A DNA stretch of 64,000 nt. Origin: Zootoca vivipara. Taxonomy: Eukaryota. Positions 36,572-61,429 of the stretch are shown one piece after another. The notes beneath the pieces are model-generated. The model searched no databases. It was not told where the DNA came from and saw only the letters and a list, made by a program, of their open reading frames with translations. The stretch is from contig NC_083283.1 in the NCBI RefSeq assembly GCF_963506605.1, forward strand, positions 56,916,001 through 56,980,000, given 5' to 3'. Position 1 is the stretch's first letter, and each line of letters begins with the position of its first letter. The position numbers were made by a program, and so were the translations under genes.

Positions 36572-38338
36572 GTTAGTACCAGGAGGAAGCAAATTGCCTT
36601 GTAGAAATATTCCTGTTTAGGATTAAAGTGCTTATTGTGATTATCTATGCTAATCACATAATATATACTGTAAATATAAAGCCATGTGTCTATATTGCAT
36701 GTCAAGGCAATGAGTGAAGGAATTACTATTCTTATCTCTAGCTTGCTGAAAAACAGAGATTTTATTCCTTAGCAGGAATCAGCTGAGGGTACTTGTACTA
36801 GTAGCCCCTGGACCAAATTATAGCCACCTATATTTAATTGCATCCTGGGAATGGAATGGGGTTGCTGCCAATCAAAGTGACTCTTTGGCAAAACTCACTG
36901 CTGACAAAATATGTGGAAAGACAGATGTAAACTATTCCAGTGCTGCAAGACAGGTGTTCCGCCACCTCTCAGGTGTGCTCCATTGCCATTCAAAGAGAAC
37001 GAGGGAAGTGTTCATGGTGAGTTATGGCACCTCTTTTTCTAGAAAAATAGCGCTGCCCACAGCCTTCCATTTTGAACACACTGCCTCACACACCACAACT
37101 GATAATTATATGGAAGGGTCCGCCGTGTTACATGATGCCTTTTCACTTAAATGTATTGCTCATATTAGACAGAAGTCCAGTAAGCATATCATAGAAGGCA
37201 GTAACTAATGGAGTCCCTCTTTTGTGGGTTGAAGCATACATATAAGGCAGAATTTGGGTGTGATGTGTATGTTTTAGTGGGGTGAGAGTTGTATATTGTG
37301 ACCCAAGATGTGCCTTGCCGAGAGGGAGGCTGAAGATGGAAGGGTTCATTGATTCTTTAAGAAGTTTTTAAAATGTGCTGCTATGTTTTGAGGGCTTAAG
37401 GATTTTATTGTTTTATGTTAGATTATATTACATTGTTTTGAAGTTTTTCATATTCATTGTTTCTTGTATATACATATTGTATTTGTTATTTTCAAGACCA
37501 CAAGGTTAGTGCCTTAATATTTAAGCAATATTTAAATACTGTATAGGAAACAATAATTTACTAGGGTTTTTCCCCTGATAAATCATCCAAAGTAGTGTAT
37601 GCTGTCCTTCTTTTAGGATGAACAAAATGAGTTGATGTTGGTGTTTCTATTAAAAGATAAGCAGCTAAATCTTGTGAAGTTTTTTGTCCTGTAACCACTT
37701 CTATGACAGGCTGCAGCTCAGTTTTTGTACAGAAGCTGACACAATTGGAATCAAAACTGAAAAAAGGCTAATTTGATCAGCATGAAGCATTCTCAGACAT
37801 TTTTAGAGAGGATCCCACTCCACTCCAGCAACGAAGCATTTTCCCTGCATCTTACATGATGAATACAGCTTTATCATTACATTGTAGTATCTTATTGCCA
37901 CAATTGGGCAAGAAAATTCGCATGTAGAAAGTCATCTGTTGCAATTAAATCCTGTTGTAAATTAATTCCTCCTGGGCATATTCTTTTTCTTATGTACCAG
38001 TATTTTTGTATAAAATCTTTATAAATATCTAAACACCACAAAATGCCATAGTAGTGTACAACAACATTAAAAAACAGGAAATAGAAAGAAATAAAGCGGA
38101 TCTCTAAAGAGAAATCCGATACTGCCTGTGAGTCAGCTCATCCTTCTGGGAACGCTTTTAGAAATAGATGTTTTAAGCACCCAACAAAATGTAATTATTG
38201 TCAGAGACTGTCTAACTGTTAATATAGAATAATGCAGAATACTGAGACTCCACTTTACATCCTTGGATATTTTCCAGTGGCTTTATGAAAGCCTAGTTTT
38301 CTGTTTAACATTTCTCGTCATCCCCTTTTCTTCAGGGT

Positions 38339-38720
38339 ATGGGAGAAAAAGAACTGCCAGGCGTTTTGATCTGTGAAATAGGAGGTGCATTTGGTGTACT
38401 GGAGAGCCATGTGGAATTCCTTAAGAAACACTTCAAGCTCATCACCCTGAGAGAGTTTCACAGAAACAAGGATGAACTTCGTGAAAAGATCAAGTCCATT
38501 TTTGTATTTGAGTGCAGACCTCTCATTGACCGGGAACTTCTTGAAAGCTTGCCCAGCCTAAAGGTGGTAGCAAACTCAGGGGTGGGAGTGAATCATTTGG
38601 ACTTGAAACTGATTTCGAGCTTTGGAGTAAAAGTCACCAACACCCCACATGCTGTTTCTGACTCCACAGCAGACATAGGCATGGCCTTAATGCTGGCATC
38701 TGCAAGAAGACTAGTGGAAG
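38339..38720 (+). CDS. GRHPR/GhrB-like D-2-hydroxyacid dehydrogenase copy 1, core exon A (exon starts at 38336)
   Basis: MGEKELP...LPSLKVVANSGVGVNHLDL...VTNTPHAVSDSTADIGMALMLASARRLVE is the 2-Hacid_dh substrate domain. ttcttcag| acceptor, G|gtaaag donor. Confidence 0.95.
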
Positions 38721-39355
38721 GTAAAGTCATTTTCTCTTGCAGTTTATGTAAGTTGTTGTGCAGATTTTGAGTTCACCACTCCCAATATCAATCAGTCCTT
38801 GGATCAGCTGATCAATAGTTACATGATAATGCCCATGATATACTGATAAATAATAATACAGGTATTTGCTCCCTTTTCTAGCTATTCAGGTACCAAGTAC
38901 CAGTAGAAATTACCCTTTAAACTGAAAATTATGGAGTACAGTACTCCAATTTTTGGCTTGCTTCTAGTTTGTAACTGAAATTGAGTCAGCCAATACCCAT
39001 TTAGCTCAACATTTTAAACCTTGATGTGTTGAAGCTCTTCAAACTCTTGAACAGATGTTTTCTCTAATCTTTCCATATGAAATTCCTTAACTAGATTTAA
39101 CGGTGATGGATTCTGCTACCTTATTCCCTAAATTTATTTTCCCACCTATATTTTTATGTGCTGCTTACTGTACAAATTCTAAGTAGAAATACCGGTATGC
39201 CTTACAGGGACTCCCATTTAGAGCTGTCTTCTGATTTTCAATAACTATTGTAAATAGTGCAGGCATGTTTTCTCATTTCTGAATTAAAGCTGTTGTAAGT
39301 ACTAACACTATTGTTTCTCATTCGCTGCTGTGTGGCTTCTGCTTTTGTTTCTTAG

Positions 39356-39527
39356 GCTGTCATATTGCAACATCTCCAGATACCACACATTTTGCGGTTG
39401 ACTGGCTGGGAGTAGAAGTTACCCGGGCCACTCTTGGTATCATTGGGATGGGCAGCATTGGGTATAAAGTAGCCAAGAGAGCAAAAGCTTTTGACATGAA
39501 CATCCTTTATCACAACAGGAACCGTAG
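39356..39527 (+). CDS. Dehydrogenase copy 1, exon B (172 nt; Rossmann LGIIGMGSIG...YHNRNR)
   Basis: GxxGxGxxG dinucleotide-binding motif, canonical splice sites, continuous frame. Confidence 0.95.
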
Positions 39528-39856
39528 GTATATCTTTGATGAAGGTGTTGTACAGTGCAGCGCAGCCCGTGCAAAATTAGCATGGGAGTAAGTCTCATGG
39601 ATCTCAGTGGGGCTTACTCCTGAGTAGATATCTACAAGACCTCAGCCTTAGTTATTTAACTTGCAATGTATTGGTAATCTAGGCTTCAAAGTCTGTTGGA
39701 AGCAGTTGCTCGAAACTACCAATCTCTGCACCATGTTACAGTGTCAGTCTGTGTGTAGTCATGGAGGCTAAGGGGCTGAGAGAGACAAAAAAACAATTCC
39801 TCCATCAGTTGAGACTATTTTCATCTCTACCATTAAAGTGGAAAAGTCATTGTATG

Positions 39857-40102
39857 GTAGGGTTGCCATATTTCAAGAGGTAAAAGTCTGGACACAAAAA
39901 GTTGTTGGGCTTCCTTAGGGCAATCGCTCAATAGTGCCTCCGCCACTGCTGAGCCTGAACTAGAGCCACCACCCCCACAAAAGAACCCCCACAAAAAATG
40001 CAGGACATTTGCTTTAAAATGTAAAATCACACACACCCGATGGGCATGTAGGATCCCAAAAGACGACATGTCCGGGAATTCCTGGACGCATGGCAAACCT
40101 AC
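39857..40102. mobile_element. hAT-like MITE (TAGGGTTGCCA...TGGCAAACCTA); related partial copy near 58098-58360
   Basis: Inverted termini. The 5' end gtagggttgccatatttcaa recurs at 58097. Confidence 0.65.
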
Positions 40103-40694
40103 ATGTATGATGATTTTTCTTGCTAATATTTGAATACTGAAGTGGAAAGCAAGTGATTTTTAAAGACATGGTGATTTTCAGACTTAGAATATGGTAAAAC
40201 GACCACACACACACCCCTGCCTGTTCAGAATTAATATATAAATAAGGATTTATTAGATTTTTGTCTTGAATCTCTTTTTGCAGCATGCACAGTGCGACAC
40301 ATACAAAATAAGGGTAATTTTGCTTATCTCCAGTATTGGCAATCAACACCTAAAGCAATCAACACAAGAAGGTGCACTAGAGGACTAGAAGATCTTTTCA
40401 AAGGATAGTAAACATTTTTTTAAAAAAAAATCACTGCTAACCAGAAACACATGCAGGCTCCCGTGTTCCTCAAATTTTCAGATTCCCATGATCAGCCAGC
40501 ATCCTTTAGCAATGCCTTTTGGCTGCCTTGAAAGGCAAGCGTGTAGCACCATGCAAGGAGCAACACTGATGTTCACATGGATGCTGCATTGAATAGGGAG
40601 GGATGCAGTGGACTTTAAATGCTGCCCTAGTAGCTCCAGGGACTAGAGTTACTAGTATAAGTGACAATGGTCACATTTATTTCCTTCCTTCCAG

Positions 40695-40873
40695 GAAAGA
40701 GGAGGAAGAACAGGCAGTTGGTGCCACTTACTGCAGAAACATAGAAGACTTGCTCCGACGGTCTGACTTTGTGATGTTGGTTGTGAATCTGACACCTGAG
40801 ACGCACAAGCTCATTGGGAAAAGAGAGCTGCAGCTGATGAAACCCACAGCTACTCTCATCAACATCTGCAGAG
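40695..40873 (+). CDS. Dehydrogenase copy 1, exon C (179 nt; SDFVMLVVNLTPET...MKPTATLINICRG)
   Basis: Family signature MK..A.LIN..RG containing the catalytic Arg. Canonical splice sites. Confidence 0.95.
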
Positions 40874-41534
40874 GTAGGGGATGTGTGACTACCTAAATGT
40901 AAACTTCAGCTATATACATTTTTTCAAATAACTATTTTTGCATATATTCCATCCTTTTCTTTGTATTTTTGTTTGTGAAAGGTTATACATTTCACCAGCA
41001 CTAATAAAGGGTGAGGCCGACAATCAATTTTCAGTGTCAGGAATCAATATGGGTTATTTTGAAACCAGTAGTATGGGGGCGGGGATCAGGAGTATGGTAT
41101 TCAATAAAAAGAAAGGGAAAATTCAGCGATGAAGCAACATATTTTGGGTACATTGGATTTGGCACAGCTACGGGTTTCATTACACCCTAATCCAGATGTA
41201 GAAGGATGGAAGGCCAACATCACATGAAGTGGCTTTATTGGTGAACTTTAACAGGTTTGCTGCAAAGGAAATGGATGAAGGACTGGATTTCATTTTTCCT
41301 ATTTTGGGTCAATCAAAATGTGTTTGGAGAGATAATGTGGAGAGACCCTTAGCTCCTTAAAATGTGTTCTTTGGCTGCAATCCTAAGAACACTTACCTAG
41401 GCATTTACTCCACTGGACACAATGTTGTGCTTTTCAAGTGAACAATGCACAGAAACGAGCTCTCAGTCCTTATCATGAGCTACTTTATGACTTTCTTGTT
41501 GTGATTATTGACATCAAAGTTCTGTCCGTATCAG

Positions 41535-41631
41535 GTGCAGTAGTTGATCAAGATGCCTTGGTAGAAGCGCTCAAAAATGGAGTTATTAAGGCTGCAGCTT
41601 TAGATGTGACTCACCCTGAACCACTGCCAAG
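41535..41631 (+). CDS. Dehydrogenase copy 1, exon D (97 nt; VVDQDALVEAL...AALDVTHPEPLP)
   Basis: LDV..PEP motif containing the catalytic Glu. Canonical splice sites. Confidence 0.95.
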
Positions 41632-42631
41632 GTAAAATATCACAAAAAAACCCCCACCTTTATTGTTGTTGTTTTAGTTCTGACATGGAATAATTATTAT
41701 TCATTGGTCCAAAACTTCAACATTAAGGCATAGATGATCATGGTTTGCCTCTGTTGCCTCCTCTGCTGCTGCCTCTTTTCCCTGTGTCCCGTTCCTGAGC
41801 CAGCATGACCTACTGTCATATTACAATGTTGATAATATGTGCTATGAGGGACATACATTGTCACCAATTTTCTTTTTGGGGGTTTTTAAAATCCATTTTA
41901 ATCAGACTTCTTAATGCTTGATGTGTTCAGAAATCTGTGTGTATGGATAGTCATAAATATGCCTTCTGTAAGTCATTTTGCCATTTCTTCTGACTGACCA
42001 GAGTCTCAGAGTATTTGGATTTAAACAAACTGAAGTAACACAAGAAATCATGATGGTAGAGGTATTAAATATAACCCAACAACACAATAGCACTTGCATT
42101 CAGGGCTGAGATAGCAACCTGTCCCTTGTCCCGAGGTCTCAAATCCTTTTCCTTTGCCCTCTAACTCTTTGAAACAAAACAACCTTCAGATTGTATAGTA
42201 GGTGGCAAAATTTGTTTTGCTGCTGTAATTCATTTTCACTCAAACCTGTACCGTGCATTTGAGATGCAAAAATAGAGCAGAATTGTAAGGGGGAGTTCTT
42301 GTTCTAAGCCTCGAATATAGACTGCATCGTTCTAAGCTTTCTGTCTAACAGTACTGCCATACAAACAAGTTTATAGGCGATGAGAAGTTTGATTCAGAGC
42401 ACCAGTCACTCAAAAGCAGATCTTCATAGGGCTAACTCCCTATAATGGTTTAGTAGATCATATCACACTTAATGATTGTGACCCACACAATGTATAGAAG
42501 ACAGCTCAGTGGAAGCTAACACTATTTTCCCCCATTTTGAGTCTTTTTCAGTGCAGTCATATAGCAATATAGTTCCTTTGATCTGCCTGTGCCAGATGAC
42601 TTCTGATTTTTCTGTTATGGCTTTCTTGCAG

Positions 42632-42788
42632 GGATCACCCATTATTGCAACTGAAGAATGTTATTATAACTCCTCACATTGGAACTGCAACTGTGCAAGC
42701 CCTGCTTATGATGACAGAAGAAGCAGTGGAAAATATACAGGCTGTTCTCAATGACCTCCCCATTCCTAGTGAAGTGATCACCCAATAG
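42632..42788 (+). CDS. Dehydrogenase copy 1, exon E (DHPLLQLKNVIITPHIGTATVQALLMMTEEAVENIQAVLNDLPIPSEVITQ*); core 328 aa
   Basis: TPH motif containing the catalytic His, stop TAG, AATAAA at 42939-42944. Confidence 0.95.
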
Positions 42789-43163
42789 TTTGATGGAGAA
42801 CATTAATAATCAATGGCTGGTCAGCAAAAGGACATTAACTGCTAAGTAACAATGGTGTATGAGAATCAAAACTCATCCTACGTAGTTTTCATTTATGGCC
42901 TCCTATTTTCTGTAATTATATTCTTAAGTAAAAGAACTAATAAATGTTGCTCCAAGGCTTTTGAGCGCAACAGCTGGCTTTCTGATTCTTCCAGCCCAAA
43001 ACAGATATGCACGTTTGTATGATAGCAAATACATTATGTAGTAAGGCTATGTAAATATTAGCCACTTGAAATGCAGCCAAGTTGTTTTTTCCCACTGCAT
43101 TTCAAGTTGTTTACTTACATTGCTGCACACAGCACAGAAGGAGAAGGATGTATTTACCTGATA

Positions 43164-43518
43164 AAGGTAAAAGGTAAAGGGACCCCTGACCATTAGGTCC
43201 AGTCGTGACCGACTCTGGGGTTGCGCGCTCATCTCGCATTATTGGCCGAGGGAGCCGGCGTATAGCTTCCAGGTCATGTAGCCAGCATGACAAAGCCGCT
43301 TCTGGCAAACCAGAGCAGCACATGGAAACGCCGTTTACCTTCCCGCTGTAGCGGTTCCTATTTATCTACTTGCATTTTTACGTGCTTTCGAACTGCTAGG
43401 TTGGCAGGAGCTGGGACCAAGCAACGGGAGCTCACCCCGTCACAGGGATTCGAACTGCCGACCTTCTGATCAGCAAGCCCTAGGCTCAGTGGTTTAACCA
43501 CAGCGCCACCTGGGTCCC
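43164..43518 (-). mobile_element. Full-length Sauria SINE with 12-bp TSD ATTTACCTGATA (43152-43163 / 43519-43530)
   Basis: Nearly identical to 26928-27274, with exact direct repeats. Confidence 0.93.
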
Positions 43519-45376
43519 ATTTACCTGATACACATTACAATACCTGATTTGTTTCCCCATACCTCCAACCCCGCTCTCCCCACAGAGTTCCAATGAAGCA
43601 GTTGTCTGCACATGCACAATGGCTGTCTGTGCAGATCTCGGCTTCACCACAGCCTGCATTTTCCAATCAAATGGGACACTGGTTTGAGGGAAAGCACTAG
43701 GATTCCTCAAGTAGCTTTAGGATAGTGTTGCAAACATCTCTATCGCTAAGCAGCGAGAGATTTCACAGGTGCCATTGGCTTACCCAATGGAGACTGGTTT
43801 CTTTAGGATATAAGGTTTTAGTTACACATATATACAACCTGAGCATAGGATGGAGGGACTCACACTCCAGCACATCTTGCTTCCCCATTAGGAAGAGTAT
43901 CCACACCCAGTTGTCTCTATGACAACATGACAAACTTCCATCATGCAGAAGGAGGGTGCTTAAGAGGGCCAGCTAGGTCATCAGCTCAACGAAGAAACTG
44001 GTTTGAACAATCCAGCAGTTCCTTCTACTACATGCCCCATCTTATAGATACAAAACTACCAGCTTGGTGGAGACCCAAAGGCGTAATCCAAACCAACATC
44101 CCAATCCTACAAAAATAGATATGAATTGTGACTAATGTCATGGGTACCCTATTCCAAACACCAATGGTGGGAGCATCCTGGAGCCCTGGTAAATAAGGAT
44201 GTGCATGCAGCCTCGGTCGCTTTCAAAAGTAAAATAATACATAATATCAATACCAAATTATACTGCAATTGAATAAGAGGCAGCTTGGTATTCTGTTGGA
44301 CATACCATCTACAGGTTTGATTTCTGTACCCTTAAAAACGTGAACTGTCCCAAACAGCAATGTTGTATCTTGTCCAACACATGCCGTTTGCATGAGGAAG
44401 ATGACACTCCCCAATATGCTGCAGTAGCCACCTTGTTTTCCCTTGCATTTTTTTGTTTCCCGAAAGAGCTACTGACCACTGCAGGCTACCCCTGCTTTTG
44501 AACGTCACACATCAAGCAAAAGCAGATTCCATTCATGGTGTAACTGAGAAGTGTGCAAAAAAGGTGGGTTGTTTTTTTTTTTACATACTAAAGCAGTGTG
44601 ATTGGATTATAAGCAACGCTATATAAGAGGAGTTCAACTTGAGCAACACCACATCCCCCTCCTCTCCCTTGCAGCCCCCTCATGTGTCCCCAGACTCTGC
44701 TCTGGGGGGGGGTCCCCTCAATGCTCTGGATTTTGAGTTAGGGGTGCTGCAGGGGAGAGGAGAGGGAAGTTTTGTGCAAGTGGAAGTCTGCTGTGCAAGT
44801 GGAACAGCAGTGCTGGAGGCAACCTGTTCTTTGCATTTGAAAACATTTCTTTATATTATTACGACAATGTTGAGGTTATAATCAAATAAGTGCATTGTGG
44901 TTGAGTCTCGGATTTAGCAAACAATGTATTTGGAGTGTTTTTTTTTGTTTTTTTTTTAAGAAACAATATGCCAAAGTACTCTCTGTTGATTAACTAGTGG
45001 AGAATTATGCATATATTTAATGCTCATGGATTGAACTTTGTTAGATAATTAAATAAGTTTAAATTAGTTTGGATTATACCCATTCTTGGCAAGCAAAGTG
45101 GCTTACAAAGTAACTTGATAAATTCCAGTGTTCAAAGTTCAGCAGTAGAGATTTGCATGCTACTATTTCAAGACATCCTTTTGATGAGCACAGCTTCACA
45201 ACTGGTATTGTGTTAATTTTTGATGTTTCCTTTTCTCTTGAAATAATTGCTTCACAGATAATCAACCACAGAGAGGTTTTCTTGCAGTCAAGCGGTATAT
45301 ACGTTTTGTTAAATAAATAAAATAAACAGGAATGAGTTTATGAGTGCTATCATACAAATCTTGACAGTTTAAGGAT

Positions 45377-45460
45377 CAGGCTTTGTGAAGTTTGATTTTA
45401 AGAGATTCAGAAGAGACAGGCTTTGTGAAGTTTGATTTTAAGAGATTCAGAAGAGACAGG
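45377..45460. repeat. Perfect tandem duplication of a 40-bp unit
   Basis: CAGGCTTTGTGAAGTTTGATTTTAAGAGATTCAGAAGAGA x2, followed by CAGG. Confidence 0.95.
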
Positions 45461-45623
45461 TTTACATCTTTCTGACCATGTTGGTGTTCCACCAATTTTT
45501 TGTATATTGTATGTCTTGCATATTGTAATGTATCACAATGAAGGAAAATAATCCAGTATTTTGTGGCATGGTTTGTTTCTATGCTTTTCAGAAAACTAGT
45601 TGTCTCCCATCCTTTCGAAGATC

Positions 45624-46005
45624 ATGCAAGATCCCAAGTTGCCTCTCTTACTGATCAATGAAGTAGGTGGCACCCTTGGTGTCTTAGAAGCGCACGTGCC
45701 ATTTCTGAAGAAACACTTTCAACTTATCACCATGAAGGAATTCCTCGAAAGCAAAGAATACTATCGTGCTAAAGTCAAAGCTATTTACTCGTGGTGGCAT
45801 AAGCCAGTCATTGACAGTGAGCTGCTGAAAAGTCTACCTAACTTAAAAGTGATTTCAAGTGCAGGAGTGGGTACTGATCACTTGGATTTGAAGCTGATCT
45901 CTGGGTTTGGAGTGAGAATTGCCAACACCCCTCATGCTGTCCACAGCACTACAGCAGATATTGGCATGGCCCTGCTTCTGGCAGCTGCTAGAAGGCTCGT
46001 AGAAG
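45624..46005 (+). CDS. Dehydrogenase copy 2, exon A (exon starts at 45592; MQDPKLP...ISSAGVGTDHLDL...AARRLVE)
   Basis: Same 382-nt coding length and phase as copy 1. In-frame TAG at 45597-45599 upstream of the ATG. Confidence 0.95.
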
Positions 46006-46665
46006 GTAACACTGGCAATACTGTGCACATTTTTTTACAGTTACCCTTGTCCCATTTTCCCGAGCAATGAGACGTTCCAGGGCGGAGCACTTATCCAGAT
46101 GGAAGGAGTTAAGTTGAGGCTGGTGTCAGGGATGAGGAGTCCGATTATTATTCAGGTGATGGAGTGGAGGAATCCAAAACAGAGGACAGGTACAGCCAGA
46201 CCCAGAAGCGTTGCTACCCAGTAAGCTCATGGAGTCAACGTAAGCCTGGCCAGAGGAAGTGGTACTGTCGTCCTCTGACTTGGAAGACTCCATGGAAAGT
46301 GACAAGCAACCAGTCTCCCACGTTCTGTCGCAGATAGAGATTAATGCTGAGAGCTAGGTCCCTTTAAGCAAAGCAGCACCTTCCAGTATGGGTGAGGCTC
46401 ACAATGGGGAAGTATCAACGCTGCTGATCTACAGGAAAGAAGCTCGCTTTGTTCCTTGCTGAAACAACATAGAAGCTTTCTGTTCAAAGAGTACAGCTCG
46501 AGTCTCTGACTTCAACCTCAACCTTTTTCTACCTAATATTGCGTCAGGTTGCCTTGTATCCTGCCTGAACCTCACCCTGCAGTTTGCAGATATATTTGTA
46601 ATGCTGAATTGGTCTGCTAACAGGCCTGGTGCCTGAAGCCAGCTCCCAGTAGAGCAATTACTTGC

Positions 46666-46666
<1 letters not shown>

Positions 46667-46706
<40 letters not shown>

Positions 46707-47195
46707 TATTATTTATTATTTATACCCCGCCCATCTGGCTGGGTTTCCCCAGCCACTCTGGGCGGCTTCCAACCGAATATTAAAAACAATAGTGCATCAA
46801 ACATTAAAAACTTCCCGAAACAGTGCCACCTTCAGTTGTCTTTTAAAAGTAAAATAGTTGCTTATTGCCTTGACATCTGCTGGAAGGCCCTCTGTCTGGT
46901 TCCCTGTGACCTCACTTCTCACAATGAGGGAACTGTCAGAAGGCCCTTGGCGCTGGATCTCAGTGTCCGGGCTGAACAATGGGGGTGGAGACGCTCCTTC
47001 AGGTACACATGACCGAGGCCGTTTAGGGCTTGAAAGGTCAGTACCAACACTTTGAATTGTGCTCGAAAACGTACTGGGAGCCAGTGTAGATCTCTCAGGT
47101 CCGGTGTTATGTGGTCCCGGCTACTCCCAGTCACCAGTCCAGCTGCCGCATTCTGGATTATTTGCACTTTCCGGATCACCTTCAAAGGTAGCCCC
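46667..47195 (-). mobile_element. L2-clade LINE 3' fragment with (TTA)n tail
   Basis: Minus-strand peptide QNAAAGLVTG...DHITPDLRDLHWLPVRFRAQFKVLVLTF.ALNGLG is the L2 ORF2 C-terminus. (TAA)n run at 46667-46706. Confidence 0.9.
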
Positions 47196-47415
47196 TGCTT
47201 GTGTATATGCTTGTGTATATGAAATTTTGTATGCAATATGACTTTTGTTACGATCTAAACAAATAATTTAACCCTGATGTATAATGAAAAATCACCTATT
47301 TACAGCCTCAACTGAATAACTCAGATTTCTTACAAAAATCACTTTCCTCCCTAGAATTCTGTTTTTAATTAACACCTCTTCTCCACCCGCCACCCCTTAT
47401 TTTGTCATTTTGCAG

Positions 47416-47587
47416 GTTGCCAGATTGCTGTTTCTCCTGACACAGACTATTTCTCTAATAACTGGTTAGGAGAGGAAGTCACTGGGGCAACTCTGGGTAT
47501 CATTGGAATGGGAAGCATTGGGTATAAAATTGCTCAGAGAGCCAGAGCTTTTGAGATGAAAATTCTTTATCATAACAGGAACAGAAG
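47416..47587 (+). CDS. Dehydrogenase copy 2, exon B (172 nt)
   Basis: [56 protein letters not shown] with canonical splice sites. Confidence 0.95.
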
Positions 47588-48592
47588 GTAAAAATACACA
47601 GTTTGGTCCCATACAAAATAGAACACATCTTCACCTCTAAAGCTATTTTGCCCCCGAATCTTTGTGCATGTGTATAGAGAGAAAGATCAGCTGGTCTTCA
47701 GAAGTGAACAAACACAGCGGTACTTTTCAGCTCGTATTTCTGTTTAATGTGATGAAGAGAGGCTAGCCTATTGTGCTTAGGAAAGGCGAGCCATCCGGTG
47801 AGAAGAAGAGAAGGAAAAATAAGGGCCATTTCACACAAACCAAGTTCATTTCTTTGTAAATAAGGAAACTGGCTAAGTAGCTTGTTCCAGCATTCACCCA
47901 AATCCTATAACAATATGTGAAGTCTTCCTGCCAGTCTTCCAACCCTCCCACTTTTTTTCTACAAGAGAGCCATGATTTAAGGTTGATATTCACCCCAAGT
48001 TATGTCTGAAATTGGCTTTCGCTGTGTTCCGTTTCATCTTCACTCTGGTTTTCTAAGCTGTTGCCTTGCTAGGGAGGAAACTAGCTATTACAAAAACCAC
48101 AAGGACTGCTGAAAAGAGTCATGGGCAAAGCTCTCTTCTTCCCTTCAGTAACACATTGTGGAACTTACCTGTGGTTTTCCTGTGCTTCAAATCAGAATAT
48201 TAAAAGAACTTAACCTCATCATGATGGAGGGAGAAGGGAGAAGCTCTACTACATGCAGTTGCCATTTTTGGTGTGTGTCAAGAGTTTGCTAGGAAAAAGT
48301 ATACAGCTCAGCTCATTTTTATGCTGAGTTCGATTATGTTATTAAATCTCAGTAGCTTGATTGCAATATTTTAGGTTCTTCAGCTTTGAAAAAGTCTTTA
48401 AACTTTTTTTAAAAGATAAACTTTTTTAGAAAGATAAGTATCAATACAATATACAGAGTAGATTGGAACATTATTCTGATCTACTGTGTAGCCTTGAACT
48501 ATGGTGCACCCCTTGTTCTACAAGGGATCTGCACATTTGTGAATTCCAACCCAAGAACAGGGGAGATCATCCTTGTTGTTGTTTTCTGGCAG

Positions 48593-48771
48593 GAAAGAAG
48601 ATGAAGAACAGGCTGTGGGTGCCTGCTATTGTGGGGCAATAGAAGACTTGCTCCAGCAGTCAGATTTTGTGATGCTGGTTGTAAATCTGACACCTCGGAC
48701 ATACAAGCTGATTGGGGAAAAAGAGTTGCAGCTGATGAAACCCACAGCTAGCCTTATAAATATCTCTAGAG
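48593..48771 (+). CDS. Dehydrogenase copy 2, exon C (179 nt)
   Basis: KEDEEQAVGACYCGAIEDLLQQSDFVMLVVNLTP...MKPTASLINISRG. Confidence 0.95.
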
Positions 48772-49089
48772 GTAGGTCATAAAGAGCTGCTTGAAGAAAA
48801 ATATTGATTGTTAGGACTTCAAAGCACAGCACTGTCTGAAAGTCCCTTTGCAAAAAGGCTTTGAAGCAGCCCAGTGTTCCCATTTTGAGCAGTTGCTTTT
48901 TGAAGAAGCCCTGCATTCTTTATCACAACATGTGAATCTGTGCTCAGCTTAACATCGTAGTTTGTTTTGAGAGAAACAAACTACAAGTCTTGGCTCACAA
49001 ATTGTGTTATACCAAGGCTCATGGTCTGTTGCTCCCAGCTTGATGAATGGAGGTGTGTAATGAGATCAGTTCGGCAGCCTGTACTTATG

Positions 49090-49248
49090 TTCTCCTTAAC
49101 TCGGAAGGTGGTGGTCTCTCCTCCTTTGGAGCTTTTTTAGCAGAGGCTGGGTGGCCATCTGTCATGGATGCTTTAGTTGAGATTCCTGCATTGCAGGGGA
49201 TTAGACTAGTGGACTCTTGGGGTGCCTTCCAACTGTATGATTTGATGA
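49090..49248 (+). mobile_element. Degenerate CR1 LINE 3' end
   Basis: agcagaggctgg..ggccatctgtc...gcaggggattagactag...ccttccaact.tatgatt pattern. Confidence 0.65.
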
Positions 49249-49304
49249 AACCGTACAATGCACAATTACCCAGCGGTTATCATAAGAACATGATTTCCAC
49301 ACAG

Positions 49305-49401
49305 GGCAAGTTGTAGACCAAGATATGCTTGTGGAAGCTCTTCAGACTGGTGTCATTAAAAGTGCCGCTATGGATGTCACTTATCCTGAACCACTACCCA
49401 G
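49305..49401 (+). CDS. Dehydrogenase copy 2, exon D (97 nt)
   Basis: QVVDQDMLVEALQTGVIKSAAMDVTYPEPLP with cacag| acceptor and |gtaaac donor. Confidence 0.95.
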
Positions 49402-51074
49402 GTAAACAACTATGTATTTATATATTTTTAAAAAATGAATGACTATAAGCACATTGTAAAGACTGCAGGAAAGCATAGAAGTAACCAGTGCTAAAGTTCA
49501 GACTGACATCTCTGCCTTCTTCCACTGTATACTCTGGGAAGTAGTAGGAGAACCTATATAGTACACAACATGCTTCCTTTCCAAATTAAAGCCATGAGGC
49601 AATGGACGGACAGTGTGAGCAGGTGTTAAGTACCATAAATGTTTGAGTTAGTGCTGAAAGCTTTCATCTGCAGCTGGGATTCCTAACTGCATCTTAAAAC
49701 ATCCCTTGCCGCCCACCAAGGCCTCTGTCCCTCCCAATTTGTTTAAAAAGTGTATTTGGCTTTTTTGTTATTGTTCATTTGGGAGGATCGCTTGATTTTT
49801 TTATTTTTTATTTAGAGGAAGGGGAGTATGGTCTGCTTTTAGTCTTTGTTTTGTTTGTGGATCGGGGTGGGAGCCTATTTTCAGATGCGCGGTTCTGAGC
49901 ATTGTCAGTTTTTTGTATACAAAATGGGAATTTTATGCTGGAGTTTGTAGATTTCCGAATGTTCCTCCAGACCAAAAATAGTTGGGGACCCTGCAGTTCA
50001 AAGGGCAGTTCTATAATTGTAGTGATTATCCCTGCACCACAGTTATACAAGCATTATGCTCGTGTATTATAGTTGAGATCCTATGCACCTTTTATCACGC
50101 AGATAAGACAGGAAAGGAGGAGCGTTATTCCATTCATAACAAGCAGCCAACCCTATTTCTCAGTGCAACATACATTGCACACCTACACCCTCTTCCTCCC
50201 AAAGACATGGGCTTATGGTCAGTTGTCTGACCACATAGATAGCTGAAAGAATACTCCACACATGAATTTATGGGATCTGTGTGATTGGAGCAAACATTTT
50301 GCAAAAGAGAGGGCCATATAGTCCCAAGAAAAGGAGGCACTTCAGCCATGAGTTCTTAATGTACAAGGAGATATCCAGAAGTTTAGTGAGAAGGAGCAAC
50401 GCAATGGGAGACAGAGGGTGGGGCTTTGAGTCGTCCGGGGCTCCCCATTGACTCCAATGTGAGTGTTTTCATTTTGCATTACCTGTTCTGCGGTTATAAT
50501 GGTGTGCTGGTGCCATGGACGCTACCAGTATCTGAGGTTCTCTCTCCTCCTACCTAATGCCTGAACTTCCTCAGTTCATGTTGGTGAATCAGTTAAACAT
50601 GCATTAAGCAGCACCAATGCAACAGTGATCCAACACCAATGTAATCCACAACACTTGCATGTTTTTGAGCTTCTAGCCTGCAGGTGGGCTATGGGGGTGA
50701 TCCAGTCTATAACTGCAGGCGTAAGTCATGGGTAGGATTGCTCCGTTAATATTCTACTTTAGAAATATAAGTTACATAGATCTACAGTGATTTATTTATA
50801 TATAACTACACATTAACTATTATACTCTACTAAAGCACCTGCATAATCAGAGGGAGTAAATATTTACCACGGCGGCTGAAACTGAAGGGTACACTTGCTT
50901 ATTTTCAAGTCCTTTGACTTGGGTACATTGCTAGAATATGGATGATTGCCAAGTCAGATAACAAAAATCCTTCAAACGGTGGATAGCTCTAAGTACCGGT
51001 ACTTTTCCTTCATTTGTTTGAATGAATGCCACTTCCTATATTAATAACCTGTCTTTTCCCCCTCTTCTTTTCAG

Positions 51075-51231
51075 AGATCATCCATTACTAAACTTAAAAA
51101 ATGTTATCATAACACCACATGTTGGTTGTAAAACACACAAAACTGCTTTTATGATGACAGAGGAAGCAGTAAGCAATGTATTGGCAGCTCTTAATGGTCT
51201 CCCAATGCCCAGTGAAGTGTTTCCTGACTAA
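51075..51231 (+). CDS. Dehydrogenase copy 2, exon E; protein 328 aa
   Basis: DHPLLNLKNVIITPHVGCKTHKTAFMMTEEAVSNVLAALNGLPMPSEVFPD*. Confidence 0.95.
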
Positions 51232-51585: not shown

Positions 51586-51588
<3 letters not shown>

Positions 51589-53699: not shown

Positions 53700-53910
53700 G
53701 TCCTCCTAGCTTGCAGCTTCGCGGTTTCCCAGCCCAGGGGGAACAAAGTCCTCCCTGCCGTGCCGACTCCTTAGCTGGGGACTCAAAACACTCCGGGATT
53801 TATTCCCCGTTGATTTCCACGTCCCGGTCCCTCAGCTCTGCTCCGAATCAGCAAGTGCCAATTCAAGAGCAACCTTCCTGAAGGAGCTGAAAGACGTTTC
53901 TTTCCACAAG
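53700..53910 (+). other. Candidate upstream exon / promoter region of dehydrogenase copy 3 (5' end approximate)
   Basis: Locally GC/CpG-enriched with a good donor AAG|gtaatt at 53910/53911. The next acceptor is at 55244. Confidence 0.5.
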
Positions 53911-54900
53911 GTAATTTGTATTTCGGGGGCAAGCGAAGGCGCCATAGTACTTGGTAGCATCTCTCGCTCGCTCGCTCTCTTTTAAGGTTGCTAATCTTTA
54001 TTAACCTTTAACTGACGCCTTTTCCCCTTTTTGCATCTTCTATCTAAGGGGTTGCTTGTCTGTGTAGGAATTTCCTAAAGGCAAACATTCTCACAAAACT
54101 AGCGAGCATATCAGCCCCTGCCCTAAGCAGAAGTTCCTAAATTCCATGGGGAATTTCATGGCTCTCCGTCTCCAGAAATGTCCCATCCCTAACTGTCATT
54201 TGCTTGGGTGGGTGTTTAATTCCAGCCAATAAGAGGGGTATATGCAAATTAATAGAGAGGGGGCGGGGTCCTTATCTGAGCTTTTTCCGGGAGCGGGGCA
54301 GGGATCACATTGTCTCTGCAGCTCAAGCTTTGTGACAGTAGGCAATTCTATTCTCACCGGGGGAAGGAAGGAGTGAGTTGTAATCGTCAGATTTTGTTTT
54401 AAATTGGGGCGCACTTTTTCGGAGAAATACACTTGGGCGAAGTGAACCCTTTTGTTCCTTCGTTCGCGACTGGACTTAACTGCCAGGGGTCCTTTACCTT
54501 TTTGCATTTGTTATCCCTGAATAGCAACTGGAGGCGTCATTTCACGAGGTGATAGTGACTCATGTCCTGTGACACTTGTTTATGAAGTTGGTTTTGTATT
54601 TAGTTCGTTGAACTTCTTCTTAAAATCCAGATGTATATTAAATTAGGGGAAAGAGTTTTGTGCATTGCAGTGCCTGAGGAGGAGAATACAGCATTCAGAA
54701 GCATTAACGTTCATCTTTTGATATGGTCAGGATTAGATTACAAAACGTCTACTATGTTTCATGATGGTGTTTAGTTTTTCCCCTTTATGTAAATCACTAA
54801 TCAGTGTTTCTCAACAGAATTTATACTAAGAACACTCCATTCTTGCTAATGAATCAGTAGTGGTAGGTATAGATTACCTGGACTCCCTTGGGGAGAAGGG

Positions 54901-54901
<1 letters not shown>

Positions 54902-54939
<38 letters not shown>
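54902..54939. repeat. (TTA)n microsatellite
   Basis: Seen directly. Confidence 0.9.
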
Positions 54940-55247
54940 TAATAGTGAAAACCTTGACCCTTGATGGGCACTTCCGCCTTGATCTTATTCAGAATTAAGC
55001 CCTGCTGAGTTCAGTTGGGTTTACTCCCAAATTAAATCTGCATAGATTACACAATTTTGGACTGAACGCTTCGGAATGCTAATTAGCAGTCTTGGATATC
55101 CCCACCCTTATTGTATAAAGGAACTACCCTATTAATCACAATGAACTAGAAAAAAACAATAATCTGAAGAGAAACACTGCTGTCTTCACATTGGTTTTAA
55201 AAAATGAGTTTTGATATATAAATTCTTTTTATATATATATACAGACC

Positions 55248-55629
55248 ATGGAAGAGAACGAGCATCCATATACACTGATAAATGTCATAGGAGGCACAAA
55301 TGGAGTATATGAAGACCATGTGGAGTTTCTGGAGAAACATTTTAAGCTCATTACCATGAAGGAGTTTACTGAAAACAAGCAAGCTCTTAGTCATAAAATC
55401 AAAGCAATTTTTATGTGGTTTCACAAACCAGTGGTTGACAGGGATCTCCTGCAAAGCTTGCCTAATTTAAAGGTGATTGCAAACTGTGGCGTAGGAGTGG
55501 ATCACTTGGACCTCAAACTGATCTCCAGCTTTGGCGTGAAAGTAGCAAACACCCCATTCGCAGTTTCCAATCCTACAGCAGACTTGGGGATGGCCTTGAT
55601 GCTGGCTTCCGCCAGGAGGATTGTGGAAG
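55248..55629 (+). CDS. Dehydrogenase copy 3, exon A (exon starts at 55245; MEENEHP...IANCGVGVDHLDL...SARRIVE)
   Basis: Kozak accATGg, 382 nt coding like the other copies, donor G|gtacac. Confidence 0.95.
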
Positions 55630-55840
55630 GTACACTTTAGCTTTCCGATTAACTTGCTTTAAAACATGGTGTGAATGCAACTGGTTGTGCACGGGTTGCT
55701 GTGCTTAAAAGTAATAGAGTGATCAAATAAAGGGAATTATTAAATGCTGTTTGTTGATAAAAAAAATATTTCCAAACAAATCCACCCTAGAAAACATATT
55801 CGGTCTTACGAAACACCTGCCCTGTAAAGACAGTCTATTG

Positions 55841-55976
55841 CAGACATCCCCAAACTTCGGCCCTCCAGATGTTTTGGACTACAATTCCCATCTTCCCTGA
55901 CCACTGGTCCTGTTAGCTAGGGATCATGGGAGTTGTAGACGGAAACATCTGGAGGGCCGCAGTTTGGGGATGCCTG
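55841..55976. mobile_element. hAT MITE with TSD gtctattg/gtttattg
   Basis: CAGACATCCCCAAACT ... AGTTTGGGGATGCCTG. Confidence 0.85.
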
Positions 55977-56880
55977 GTTTATTGGATTTTGCAAACAGTT
56001 TCTTGGACGAGGAAGTTTTTTTCTCATGGTCTACAAGCGCTTGATTATATAGGCCTATAAATAGGCACGTGCAGAGAGGTTTATCTGTAAAATGTCTACA
56101 TAGTCAGCAGGATGTCTGTATAGGTTGGAGAACGCCTTGTTGCACTAGCAAACACATGGATAAACCTGTTCTACATCGTTTTCAATATGCATAAAATATA
56201 CAGCCTAGCTGCTGAATGCTAAATACTGAAAGTGGGTCACGGATAATTGCACTGCCACAGATGTTTGATTTAGATCCACTAGCACAGGTATCGTTTGAAG
56301 GATGTGATGACATCCTGCTGTTGGTAGAACTATATCTTCATATCTGTTTATTTTACATATTTATACTACCTTCCAGCTCAGATTAAGAACTCCCACAGAC
56401 AAGTTCACAACAGTCAATGTCTTAGTTTGCAAAATCAGAGAGCAGTGAAAGACAAAGTAAAATGTTTAGAACAAAAATAATAGCTAGCAAGATTAAAACA
56501 CACTGGTATCATGACATAATAAAAATGTATTAATTGTCAAAAAGAGGAGGGGGACAGATAAACAGGGAGAGATTTCCATAATTGGGGTTCTGTCAATGAA
56601 AAGGCCCTACCCCAACCATCCCCCCCCCATCACTCCTCTGATGAGTATAACTGTACATTTGGGCTAAAAGGGTGTGTGCCTTTAAGGAAGATTTGGGACC
56701 TGGTATGTAGTATTTTAGAAATCAAAGCAGTTGGTGGGTTGCTGTTGTTCAAATACAGCTCAGAGCTGTTAAAACCAGAGCAATTTGCCACACTGGGATT
56801 GGCATCACACCATATGTTTGTTGGTTGTTTTCCTAAAACGCTGCAAACCCTCGTTTTCTTTTGTCTATCTTAATTTCTAG

Positions 56881-57052
56881 GTCATCAGATTGCAGTTTCT
56901 CCTGACACTAAATGTTTTATGGCTGACTGGTTAGGAGAGGAAATTAACGGTGCAACGCTGGGGATCATTGGAATGGGCACTATCGGGTATAAAGTGGCCC
57001 AGAGAGCCAGAGCTTTTGAAATGAACATTCTTTATCATAATAGGAACCAGAG
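56881..57052 (+). CDS. Dehydrogenase copy 3, exon B (172 nt)
   Basis: [56 protein letters not shown]. Confidence 0.95.
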
Positions 57053-58652
57053 GTAAACCTGTGCCTGATCTCGGTGTTTTAATCTGATTTTACCCACCTG
57101 TTAACTTCAGCATTTATTTTGTCACTGCCTGGCATAAATCCATTGTAACTGAGTTTCCCTGGACTGCCTAAACATTTACTGTGAATGTTAATACCGGTAG
57201 AGTTCCTATTAAACAAGGCCTACTTCTCTGAGAAGTGACAAGGTCATGAGTAGGAATAGAAAGATCTGTCAATTTCCGTTCTTTCAGTTTTTCAATCATA
57301 CATTTGGTTCTCTATATCTCTGCAACAATTGGGGAATTCTTTTTTTTTAATCCCCATGAGAATTCATCAGTATTGCAATGCAAATTTTCCCAGGTGAAGA
57401 CATTTTGGATTAAAGTACACATTTTTGCAAGCAATTTTTCCTAACACAATGCATTTTTAATGTTAGTTTAACTAATAGATTCAGTTTTATGCACACTTTC
57501 TCCTAATATATTCATTTTTGCTAACATTGTTTGTGCATTGCACAATTCAGACAAGTACTAATTCCCAAGGATAGCTGTATTTTCATTTCACCAATCCTTT
57601 CTAATATCATCTCCATGTCTATCTAGTCACCGGGCAGGTCTTACTTCGTTTGATTTTGTTTGGAAGGAGAGGTCACTGGGGACTTAAGGTGTTTTGGTAA
57701 TATCTGGGTTTGTTTACAAATATAAAATGTGATCGACGGAAGCAGAAAGCACAGGACTTCTACAAGCAGAAAATTCGCTGCTGCCCCATCCAACCTCCAT
57801 AGGGAAGAGGTATTCCCAAATGCTTGTTTTTACTTACAGCTTAGCTGTTTTACTGCCCCCCCCCCAGCCTCCAAAATCCTGTCTTTTTACACACACATAG
57901 CTGGGAGGAGGAAGAAATGCCACTTATCCTGCCCCGCCCCCGGCACTCTGATGGATTTCACATTCTTCATAAATTTCTGTTTTGTAGCCCTGAATGCTGG
58001 TTGTAACTTGGAGAAAGTCATGCGACCTTCCTTCTCCAAAAAGGATGTACAGTATAAAGCTGGTACACTAGCTTTAATTTGGCAAAAGCAATTCTAGGTA
58101 GGGTTGCCATATTTCAAAAATTGAAAATCCGGACAGCTTTTTTTTTTTTTTTTTGCAAAGTTGTTGAGATGGTTTTGGGGTTTTTTTGGCCAGAGATTTT
58201 TTATTTTATTTTTTGCAAAGTCTCAAGAAAAGAAGAAGATGTTTTGAGCTATTTTAAAAGAAATGAACCGAAATCTACACTTCCGACATGGGTTGCCATA
58301 TGTCCGGATGTTCCCTGTGGCTGAATCCTGGCTATGTCTGGGAAATTCCGGACGTATTGCAACCTGTATATCCAGAGGTCATGTTGGTTCCAGGAGAATG
58401 CCCAAACAATATACAGTTGCATCCAGAAGAGCAAAAGTTTCAGTTTATTATTAGTCCTTCAGTGATCCTTGACAAAAAGTCCTGGATTTTTTTGGGAAAG
58501 GAAAGAATGAACTAGGTATCACCTGCATATTGCTGACACTAAAACTCACATCCCCAGATGACCTTTCCTGGTGGTTTCATGAAAATGTTTAACAACAACC
58601 TCGATGTTATTTTTGTTAAATGCTTAACTAGCTAAATGTCTGTTTCCTGAAG

Positions 58653-58831
58653 GAATGAGGTTGATGAACGGGCTGTCGGTGCTGTTTATTGCCCAAAGTT
58701 GGAAGACTTACTCCAGCGTTCTGACTTCGTCATACTGTCTGTGAACCTGACACCTCAAACACAAAAACTGATCGGTAAAAAGGAGCTGGAGCTCATGAAA
58801 CCCACTGCTACTCTTATCAACATCTCTAGAG
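58653..58831 (+). CDS. Dehydrogenase copy 3, exon C (179 nt)
   Basis: NEVDERAVGAVYCPKLEDLLQRSDFVILSVNLTPQT...MKPTATLINISRG. Confidence 0.95.
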
Positions 58832-59323
58832 GTAGGATACCGAATCATGTTTGGGAAGTAAACCACATTTTCCTGGAGAGATGCCGGCCTAGAGACTGAG
58901 GACTCTCCATTATTTTGTGGAGTCAACACACAAGAATGAGAGGAGTTGGGGGAAATCATGTCATCTCCAGCAACTGTCCACTGCACTTGCTTCAGGTGAT
59001 TAGTCTCCTACTTTTTAGGCGCTGTAGAGCTAGATAAGCCTCTCCCAACCTGGTGTCCTTATAATGTTTTGGAGCATAAATCTAAACCATTCCAGCAGGC
59101 AGCATAGAATGGTCCATGGTAAGGGATTATGGGAGTTCTAGCCCAAACCTGGAAGGCACCAGATTGGGAAAGGCTGAGCTAGATTGGAACAGATATTGGA
59201 CACACATTATAGTTCTGCAGAAATCTCGGCTGATAGGATTTTGAAGTCCTTGCTTTCTATATTGCTGTCTATAATGCAGTCTTATGTTTCAGTTCAAAGA
59301 AAACAGTACAATTTTTCATTTAG

Positions 59324-59420
59324 GTCAAGTGGTTGATCAAGATTCATTGGTGAACGCACTGAAAAATGGAGTTATTAAGGCCGCAGCTTTGGATGTGACA
59401 TATCCTGAGCCATTGCCAAG
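59324..59420 (+). CDS. Dehydrogenase copy 3, exon D (97 nt)
   Basis: QVVDQDSLVNALKNGVIKAAALDVTYPEPLP. Confidence 0.95.
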
Positions 59421-60653
59421 GTAAAAATGGTTCTGCATGGAAATGCTTAAGCAGAAATCAGAATCAATGTTTGTCTATTAACTATTTGGTTTGCCATCGA
59501 TTGCCCCATCTTTGGCATAATCTATGTCCCAAAATGTATTCTGACTCATTTCTGATTTGCCTGAAGATGGATGAATCAGTTTTGGTTTTCAAAGTTTCTT
59601 ACTTTTCTAATCTTAAATTCATTTCTCCACATTTCCACAGCAAATGTGCTAATTTAAAGAAAAAATCTTCATGAAAATTCACCAGCATTTTTGTACAAAT
59701 TTATCCTTAAAACCACATTTTTATATTTAAATTTTTTTGAATTTTTTTTACATTTTTCTCTTTTATGGCTGCAACTTTTCACTATATTTATATGTGTCTT
59801 TTGTAATTGTATATTTCATTGTTGAAGCGCACCCTGGCACTTCACGTTAAAGGGCCGGTTAGAAATCTAATACGTAAATATAAACATCTGGAGGGCGCCA
59901 TCACCAAGGGCAATTTAAGATGAAGCAGCTGGACATTTACTCCAAACCATGGCAATTGTTAATTCTTCAGGTTACTGTAGATGTGATGTAGGGTTGTTAT
60001 CTAGTATTAGTCAGGGTGGATCCATTAAATTCAATGAATCTAAGTCGGAATATGATTTAGTTGGGTATCACTCATAGTGTGTTAATGCAAACTTTACATT
60101 GTAATGGCTCTGAAATGTTAACTGGTTTGCATAGGCAAGGTGGTATAATTTTAAACCTCATGGTGCACAGACAATACTTATGCAATCAGTTTAATAACAG
60201 TTGCTCATGGACCTTGGAATTCAGATTCCAAGGCCTCCTTTGACCTCATATGTGCAAATCTCCTTAAGTGAACTGTGAAATTGCAGCACCTATGCAAATG
60301 GCTGCCATTGCAGCATAAGAGTAGATCAGTCATTCAGACCTCTTAAACCTTGAACATGTTAGCAGGCAAATTAATGGACACAACTTACCTTCTTTTTTTT
60401 TACTATTTCAATCATAGGGTTGGGTCATACTTATTACTCCATTTTATAATGCAGATGTGAATATTACTTGTATTTTGTGTATGCAGAAAACAATCTGAAG
60501 GTTCCTTATTCAGTTCCATCTCTATGTACACTATCTGGAACTCCTCAAATGAAGGAGAGGATATAAATGTTTACAAACAGATTAAAATGTGATGTGTGAC
60601 TAGCAGACACATACCGTAGAACATGCCTGTCATTTAGATACAGTACCTTTTTG

Positions 60654-60816
60654 CAGTGCTTTTTTCTGGGGGGACGCATACCCCTAAACATTTTGTGAAT
60701 CTTTGTACTTTTGTCCATTTACTGTATTTATTTCCCCTGATTTGAACTATAAAATGGTGGTTTTCTTGAGTCAAAATGAGAGTACCCCTAAACATTTTTT
60801 AAAGAAAAAAGCACTG
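60654..60816. mobile_element. hAT MITE with TSD cctttttg/cctttgtg
   Basis: CAGTGCTTTTTT ... AAAAAAGCACTG. Same family as 20734-20885. Confidence 0.82.
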
Positions 60817-61275
60817 CCTTTGTGGCCCTGAACTGATTTTAAGAATGGGATTTGATTGTGCGTGTAATGGCATATTTTAGTTAGTTTCCTTCCAATTATA
60901 GAATGGACTGAGCAGTGGAGGGTTCTGTCAGCAAATGAAGGAAGGTAATTTTCACTGATTTCCCTTTAAGTCACCCTCCTCTCTGTCCCTCATGCTGTTC
61001 TGAAGGGTCCCCCAACCCTTTGGAGCAAATTTTCATGGGCATTGGGCATTTCAGGGAGAACAAGGAATCAGTCAGTCACGTCTTCCCCTTCTCCTGGCAG
61101 AAGCGTCCTGCGAACAGAACTCTGTGTAGGAATGTTTCTGCCAGCAACTGCCTTGTTAGGAACCAAGCCTAACATAATAATCGGTTCATTTTCACAAACT
61201 TTTTGTGGTCAAAATAGTGGCATGCTTTACTAAGATTTTAAGTAAATTTATGATTTATTTTCTTCCTTCCTTCAG

Positions 61276-61429
61276 AGATCATGCTTTATTACATTTAAAG
61301 AATGTCATTATAACTCCTCACCTTGGAAGTGCAACTTCAAAAACTCGCCGTCTGATGATGAAAAACATGGTTGAAAGTATCTTGGCTGGCGTCAGTGGTC
61401 TCCCAGTCCCTAACGAAGTACATGTATAA
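61276..61429 (+). CDS. Dehydrogenase copy 3, exon E; protein 327 aa
   Basis: DHALLHLKNVIITPHLGSATSKTRRLMMKNMVESILAGVSGLPVPNEVHV*. Confidence 0.95.

Follow-up and report, generated by a model that had tools for sequence, protein, structure and literature searches.

Three adjacent reductase-like genes in the lizard Zootoca vivipara raise the question of what enzymes they encode, how old they are and whether the copies share one task or divide it. They lie in a 64,000-nucleotide stretch of the genome (the window; NCBI RefSeq assembly GCF_963506605.1, contig NC_083283.1, positions 56,916,001 to 56,980,000 of the forward strand; contig C8) and are here called g1, g2 and g3. A first-pass annotation had described them as old duplicates that form a functionally uncharacterised, non-mammalian lineage separate from GRHPR. 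On balance, we favour the reading that the trio are intact, long-conserved duplicates of the GHRB type, distinct from the oxalate-disease gene GRHPR, that likely act as NADPH-dependent 2-keto-acid reductases and divide the work by compartment and substrate. As had been anticipated for sauropsids, all three loci are already in databases as automatic annotations under borrowed names, either 'probable 2-ketogluconate reductase' or 'GhrB-like': the spliced g1 and g3 proteins match RefSeq models P0316 and P0321 letter for letter, and g2 matches P0119 at 100%. What is new is function and history rather than discovery of the loci, namely an old animal subfamily, a triplication in sauropsids, an apparent loss in human and mouse, a likely optional presequence and fixed differences in the substrate pocket.

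Three intact genes retained under selection

The core coding exons of the array, in window coordinates, are as follows.

38336..42788, + strand: g1 core, five exons (38339-38720, 39356-39527, 40695-40873, 41535-41631, 42632-42788), from splice reading, with 4/4 core junctions seen in RNA reads
45624..51231, + strand: g2, five exons (45624-46005, 47416-47587, 48593-48771, 49305-49401, 51075-51231), from splice reading
55248..61429, + strand: g3, five exons (55248-55629, 56881-57052, 58653-58831, 59324-59420, 61276-61429), from splice reading

The RNA evidence used here and below comes from four runs from unspecified tissues, two of them raw runs chosen by species label, of which 6% each was read. 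The first four exons have the same sizes in all three genes (382/172/179/97 nt), and the last measures 157, 157 and 154 nt in g1, g2 and g3, respectively. All 12 introns follow the GT-AG rule, there are no internal stops, and the encoded proteins of 328, 328 and 327 residues share 69.5, 69.4 and 68.8% amino-acid identity in pairwise comparison, which bears out the earlier description of three intact, diverged, same-strand genes with matching exon sizes. Their introns were said to lack similarity, and in blastn comparisons the sole match is one of 69 bp (78%) between intron 2 of g1 and g3, the other two pairs giving none. Pairwise ratios of nonsynonymous to synonymous substitution (dN/dS) are 0.13, 0.18 and 0.16 (Nei-Gojobori method, NG86; bootstrap upper limits 0.20-0.25), at dS values of 1.15-1.65 that are near saturation, and these ratios uphold the view that the genes are old duplicates kept by purifying selection.

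A candidate fourth functional copy on contig C15 (locus L025, G000:C15:36,703,600-36,705,950) was rejected. It is a broken retrocopy of g1 that has no core introns, carries a stop, a frameshift and two interruptions, and retains 86-92% DNA identity; its dN/dS against g1 is 0.46 over ~240 codons, in contrast to the intact trio. Since it is a processed pseudogene, germline transcription of g1 is implied. Directly downstream of the retrocopy (L025-L026, C15 ~36,706,300-36,711,600) lies an element resembling a long terminal repeat retrotransposon, with long gag and pol frames.

A GHRB-like subfamily distinct from GRHPR

The trio belongs to the D-2-hydroxyacid dehydrogenase (2HADH) family, as first proposed, and is GHRB-like but not GRHPR. 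The two-domain fold defined by PF00389 and PF02826 was found (by Pfam on the database hits, with PF02826 also above its cut-off on the window exons), and every catalytic and cofactor motif, including GxGxxG and the Arg/Glu/His catalytic residues, is present in all three genes; R301, E330 and H349 (numbered on the 385-residue form of g1) are invariant in 52/52 aligned rows. A structural model of g1 (predicted local distance difference test, pLDDT, 87) matches the fold of the GHRB enzymes 9m0t, 6bii and 2gcg with a Foldseek probability of 1.0, and a search of the ESM Atlas returned only this same family. The top PDB sequence, fold and NCBIfam matches make glyoxylate/hydroxypyruvate reductases the nearest characterised relatives, the placement in GHRB (as defined by Matelska 2018) being one by top matches rather than by a tree with other 2HADH subfamilies as outgroups.

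The true GRHPR of this lizard has nine exons, lies on contig C16 and is 40% identical to the trio; a single-exon search found one match to GRHPR exon 8 in the genome (C16:23,652,886-23,653,017) and no second GRHPR. Vertebrate GRHPR (human PDB 2gcg) shares with the trio its fold, catalytic triad, Asp-free cofactor loop and a length of 328 residues, and g3 further keeps the equivalents of Ser296, Arg302 and Met305. The trio differs from GRHPR in having five core exons rather than nine, in its contig and clade, in the substitutions Trp141 to Phe and Ser82 to Gly, and in a longer substrate loop, while g1 and g2 also lack Ser296 and Arg302 and g1 has an optional leader. In a broad tree of 40 rows chosen from 134, the vertebrate genes fall inside an animal clade (support 100/98) with brachiopod, tunicate, echinoderm and amphioxus members, itself part of a larger assemblage (99/98) made up chiefly of unnamed proteins, including a bacterial one, and apart from both GRHPR and Escherichia coli GhrB. 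A single clade with GRHPR was rejected by an approximately unbiased (AU) test (p=0.0004), in which the lizard alone represented named vertebrate GRHPR and the tested group was chosen after the first tree had been seen. Nesting of the trio in GRHPR is thus rejected by exon structure, contig, tree and AU test alike, and the first-pass view of a separate lineage, with true GRHPR elsewhere, holds.

Bacterial relatives are more distant. Bacillus subtilis YvcT/TkrA (PDB 9m0t, whose entry title is glyoxylate/hydroxypyruvate reductase) is the best PDB sequence match (E 2.6e-61) and among the top fold matches; its His-Asn-Arg cofactor loop is similar to that of the trio, but identity is only ~39%. The RefSeq name 'probable 2-ketogluconate reductase' probably comes from YvcT/TkrA by transfer and not from a tested function. 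E. coli GhrB (NCBIfam NF011938) shares superfamily and motifs (E ~1e-69), but the trio scores 233-242 bits against its cut-off of 492 and stands in a separate clade; over the bacterial GhrB and glyoxylate reductase equivalogs of NCBIfam, scores of 233-270 bits fall below cut-offs of 455-492. A recent horizontal transfer from bacteria, to which the Bacillus match had pointed, was rejected, since the vertebrate clade sits among animal members from invertebrates.

Distribution among animals and apparent losses

Among the invertebrates, members were found in brachiopod, tunicate, sea urchin, sea cucumber and amphioxus (10 representatives looked up), and among the vertebrates in sharks, ray-finned fish, coelacanth, lungfish, amphibians and many mammals. 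Most mammals keep a single copy; annotated orthologues occur in lemurs, tarsier, pig, cattle, horse, cats, bats, rabbit, squirrels, afrotheres and marsupials, so that the lineage is not the non-mammalian one it had been taken for. Genes of the same subfamily known as annotations only include zebrafish zgc:136493 (a bichir member also bears the name Zgc:136493), chicken 2KTGRL, which groups with g1, chicken LOC420808, which groups with g2, and pig LOC100157017 and cattle LOC515578, which are co-orthologues of all three. The available part of one study tabulates 2KTGRL as bird-specific and liver-expressed, with no mammalian homologues and with function '?' (PMC6839265). The mammalian orthologues and the trees contradict that label.

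A search with a lemur query gave 2087 matches, of which the best 120 run through mammals on into birds and reptiles and include no named simian, muroid, caniform, whale or caviomorph. Of the unnamed mammalian clusters, three proved to be horse and bats, and eight further ones are nearest to rabbit (4), bats (2) and shrew (1), with one unplaced laurasiatherian. To our knowledge the gene is absent from the human and mouse annotation, which agrees with these matches. The gap in simians, mouse and rat, and others appears to reflect lineage-specific loss, including in humans and mice; we call the losses apparent because the members of some clusters were left unread and pseudogene remnants fell outside the search. 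Co-loss with GULO was rejected by comparison with the GULO loss pattern, since tarsier and bats keep the gene.

A triplication on the stem of reptiles and birds

Two vertebrate trees of hand-picked sequences (66 rows, and 62 after 33 had been dropped) unite all sauropsid copies in one clade beside the mammalian clade (99/95 and 97/93, respectively). Within it, g1 (100/99; lizard, tuatara, turtle, crocodile and bird) and g2 (100/95; lizard, skink, turtle and bird) are sister groups. Because these two clades each hold lizard, turtle and bird within a single sauropsid clade, the triplication arose on the stem of reptiles and birds. A lizard-specific expansion was accordingly rejected, the copies being common to lizards, turtles and birds. 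An origin older than amniotes, suggested by three coelacanth and two shark copies, finds no support, since these are placed outside the tetrapod clade. Extra copies outside the sauropsid clade occur in sharks, coelacanth, lungfish and Australian marsupials. In wombat and possum (P0191, P0182) the second copy also lacks the Ser and Arg pocket residues, in parallel to g1 and g2.

Pocket residues that differ between the copies

In the available part of a study of the GHRB family (PMC6303947), specificity is set by Ser296, an Arg-x-x-Met motif, Trp141 and a loop at Leu59; Gly-Ser is linked to hydroxypyruvate activity, Arg-x-x-Met and Trp141 to the exclusion of large substrates, and the absence of Asp from the cofactor loop to use of NADPH. 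We mapped these sites through lizard GRHPR and tallied them over the rows that include the C-terminus, which 27 of the 247 rows do not. At the Ser296 site the residue is Thr in 76/78 g1 rows and Ile, Val or Cys in 14/15 g2 rows, with Ser in 30/35 g3 and 59/67 mammalian rows; at the Arg302 site, Arg is found in none of the 78 g1 or 15 g2 rows, in 31/35 g3 rows and in 59/67 mammalian rows. Across g2, the commonest residues are Ile at the Ser296 site and Thr at the Arg302 site. In the window, g1 has Thr and Leu at these two sites and an acidic F-E-x-R-P loop, and g2 has Cys and Ala with a W-W-H-K-P loop. The hydroxypyruvate-type motifs Gly-Ser and Arg-x-x-Met, absent from both, are kept in g3 as in mammalian orthologues and GRHPR. 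Most members of the subfamily carry Phe for Trp141 and Gly for Ser82, and all three window genes have the Asp-free cofactor loop Tyr-His-Asn-Arg.

These differences bear on an explanation that we consider unlikely yet worth serious attention, in which the three copies share one chemistry, the reduction of glyoxylate and hydroxypyruvate as a backup to GRHPR, and are kept for tissue, compartment or dosage. The 69% identity of the copies, their identical cofactor and catalytic motifs and the nature of their closest solved relatives all suit it, as do the strong contrast between g1 and g2 in RNA cover (below) and the repeated mammalian loss, which fits redundancy; moreover, with only one GRHPR copy found in the genome, the long form of g1 could provide a mitochondrial glyoxylate reductase. 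The clade-fixed changes, however, fall on the residues that govern GHRB specificity, and g1 and g2 are without the hydroxypyruvate-binding Ser and without the Arg.

An optional leader exon in g1

The core exons of g1 stand as first annotated, but its 5′ end was incomplete, as a further coding exon and an alternative non-coding exon lie upstream.

36371..36571, + strand: g1 leader exon with ATG at 36404, 56 codons, in frame with the exon at 38336; the resulting 385-residue isoform equals RefSeq P0312
36080..36153, + strand: alternative non-coding g1 exon, start approximate, spliced to 38336; donor GT after 36153

The junction of the leader to 38336 was present in all four RNA runs (24 reads in X19, 1 read in X21, and contigs in X1 and X2), and the leader-skipping junction from 36153 to 38336, which yields the 328-residue isoform, in two of the four (4 reads in X19, one contig in X2). 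The leader adds 57 residues in frame, with 8 Lys/Arg and 1 Asp/Glu. A similar character is seen throughout a hand-picked set of 19 long g1 isoforms (lizards, snakes, turtles and birds), each with 7-13 basic and 0-3 acidic residues, whereas none of the 271 57-residue windows of the core has one acidic residue or fewer. In the AlphaFold model of long g1, residues 1-59 are unstructured (pLDDT <50). Mitochondrial presequences are basic, acid-poor, unstructured N-terminal extensions, and long g1 shows each of these features with conserved character. Composition, conservation and disorder together make the leader a likely mitochondrial presequence, and we predict with good confidence that long g1 would be imported into mitochondria. 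Comparable basic leaders occur in horn shark, chimaera, sturgeon and a cyprinid; none was seen in the N-terminal extensions examined from pig, cat, coelacanth and damselfish.

The idea that g2 or g3 is preceded by a leader exon of its own was rejected: in a tblastn search with 22 leaders the sole match in the window was 36404-36571, with no other at E <0.05. Both proteins are therefore probably cytosolic in this lizard. Three turtle g2-type models (P0091, P0085 and P0097) begin with a leader that is almost the same as that of turtle g1; turtles may splice one leader exon to either gene, or may have a duplicated leader exon. Just before the g2 coding start (45592-45623 in the window), position 45599 offers an alternative candidate acceptor that is open and in frame with the ATG of g2, and splicing of the g1 leader exon to g2 is absent among the junctions listed.

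Predicted functions and expression

Given the invariant Arg/Glu/His residues and a cofactor loop without the NADH-type Asp, NADPH-dependent 2-keto-acid reduction is expected, and we hold this chemistry to be very probable; it is the Asp-free Tyr-His-Asn-Arg loop that suggests both the NADPH preference and the reductive direction. Because the pocket residues are largely fixed per copy, they also allow substrate roles to be read, although any named substrate for g1, g2 or g3 would be doubtful. Small hydroxylated substrates, for example hydroxypyruvate or glyoxylate, would be favoured by g3, which shares its Ser and Arg-x-x-Met signature with the single mammalian gene. The Thr, missing Arg and acidic loop of g1 would suit bulkier 2-keto acids from amino-acid transamination, handled in mitochondria and cytosol. 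The Trp-Trp loop of g2, with neither Ser nor Arg, would make it a tissue-restricted cytosolic enzyme for hydrophobic 2-keto acids. The division of labour proposed at first thus gains indirect backing from clade-specific pocket residues and a leader confined to g1, its enzymatic side being predicted.

Several observations weigh against this division of work. Function is predicted from sequence and models, the papers found giving no enzyme assay or localisation; GHRB function extrapolates poorly, and members are promiscuous (available part of PMC6303947). The leader was called from composition, conservation and disorder, and the alignment of the substrate loop to GRHPR Leu59 is gapped and uncertain. 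In the vertebrate trees, g3-type sequences form a basal grade of unresolved branching and no clade. The pocket sites are labile outside amniotes, with Arg in 5/25 and Thr in 15/25 fish and amphibian rows, so that an ancestral function for g3 would hold for tetrapods only and the Thr of g1 may not be a new gain.

This variability in fishes would also suit broad-specificity clean-up of dietary, microbial or damage-derived 2-keto acids (such as 2-keto sugar acids or aromatic pyruvates) by genes under birth-and-death evolution that serve no single pathway. The separate duplications in sharks, coelacanth, lungfish and marsupials and the several apparent losses in mammals are in keeping with it, and the Phe and Gly substitutions in most of the family would open the pocket. 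We nevertheless judge it improbable: lizards, turtles and birds all retain the three copies, whose pocket residues have stayed stable since the ancestor that these groups share, a pattern that fits defined endogenous substrates.

Expression of g2 is a further difficulty. In the four runs, g1 shows the leader junction every time as well as all four core junctions, but g2 is near-absent: no g2 junction is among those listed, depth is zero in the exon 1 and exon 3 bins, and cover consists of one contig, at depth 3.8, over the last exon only. Together with the longest branch of the three window genes (0.16-0.27), this might indicate that only g1 and g3 are working enzymes and that g2 is decaying or non-catalytic. 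That outcome strikes us as very unlikely, for the g2 frame and catalytic triad are intact, its dN/dS is 0.13-0.16, intact orthologues exist in skink, turtles and birds, and the chicken orthologue LOC420808 appears among differentially expressed genes in a 'stroma' table (available part of PMC11816201).

Neighbouring genes and other features

The gene order in the window is SLC66A2, HSBP1L1, TXNL4A and then the array g1-g2-g3; RBFA starts just beyond the window end, and ADNP2 lies ~34 kb further on. The names of these five neighbours are assigned from protein motifs rather than from a family search. Two gene models give indirect signs of synteny elsewhere: hyena P0149 opens with an antisense reading of the first coding exon of TXNL4A, and P0333, of cartilaginous-fish type, is fused to RBFA.

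29315..35001, − strand: presumed TXNL4A, left neighbour, head-to-head with g1; coding exons read, name from protein motifs
33629 and ~34807-35001, − strand: TXNL4A ATG and first non-coding exon, with an RNA-read junction 33647-34805
34601..35200, no strand: CpG island lying between TXNL4A and g1; candidate promoter for both genes (CpG observed/expected 0.95-1.11)
end at 53910, + strand: candidate upstream non-coding exon of g3, by eye

Abundant transcribed interspersed repeats, presumably SINE-like (short interspersed nuclear element) and Bov-B-like from their appearance, dominate read depth at 43170-43518, 26930-27280, 35594-35790 and 62447-62860.

Significance

The genes were said to be functionally uncharacterised, and our search of the open literature agrees, having found table mentions and no functional characterisation; subscription papers or further supplements, for instance from livestock metabolite genome-wide association studies, may hold more. 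Pig LOC100157017 appears in a meat proteomics table (available part of PMC11083045). The gene is not mentioned in the available part of PMC7555810 or in 9 supplement files of PMC6886504 (2 further files lay outside the search), and in the 8 supplement files of PMC6303947 six name terms matched only a chicken genome-list row.

It is possible, and we put this forward tentatively, that these genes represent an undescribed NADPH-dependent 2-keto-acid-reducing step in most vertebrates, partly mitochondrial, which would have been lost independently by humans and other simians and by mice, and split into three substrate-distinct enzymes in reptiles and birds. Mainstream biochemistry would have overlooked an enzyme whose conservation extends from amphioxus to pigs and chickens but which humans and mice apparently lack, and, if the proposal is true, a branch of sauropsid metabolism would be invisible from the two main model species. 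Knowing the substrates would close a gap in what is understood of livestock, bird and reptile metabolism and may inform how species differ in their handling of glyoxylate/oxalate or keto acids. The trio is also well suited to testing how a targeting exon and a handful of pocket residues reshape a GHRB enzyme.

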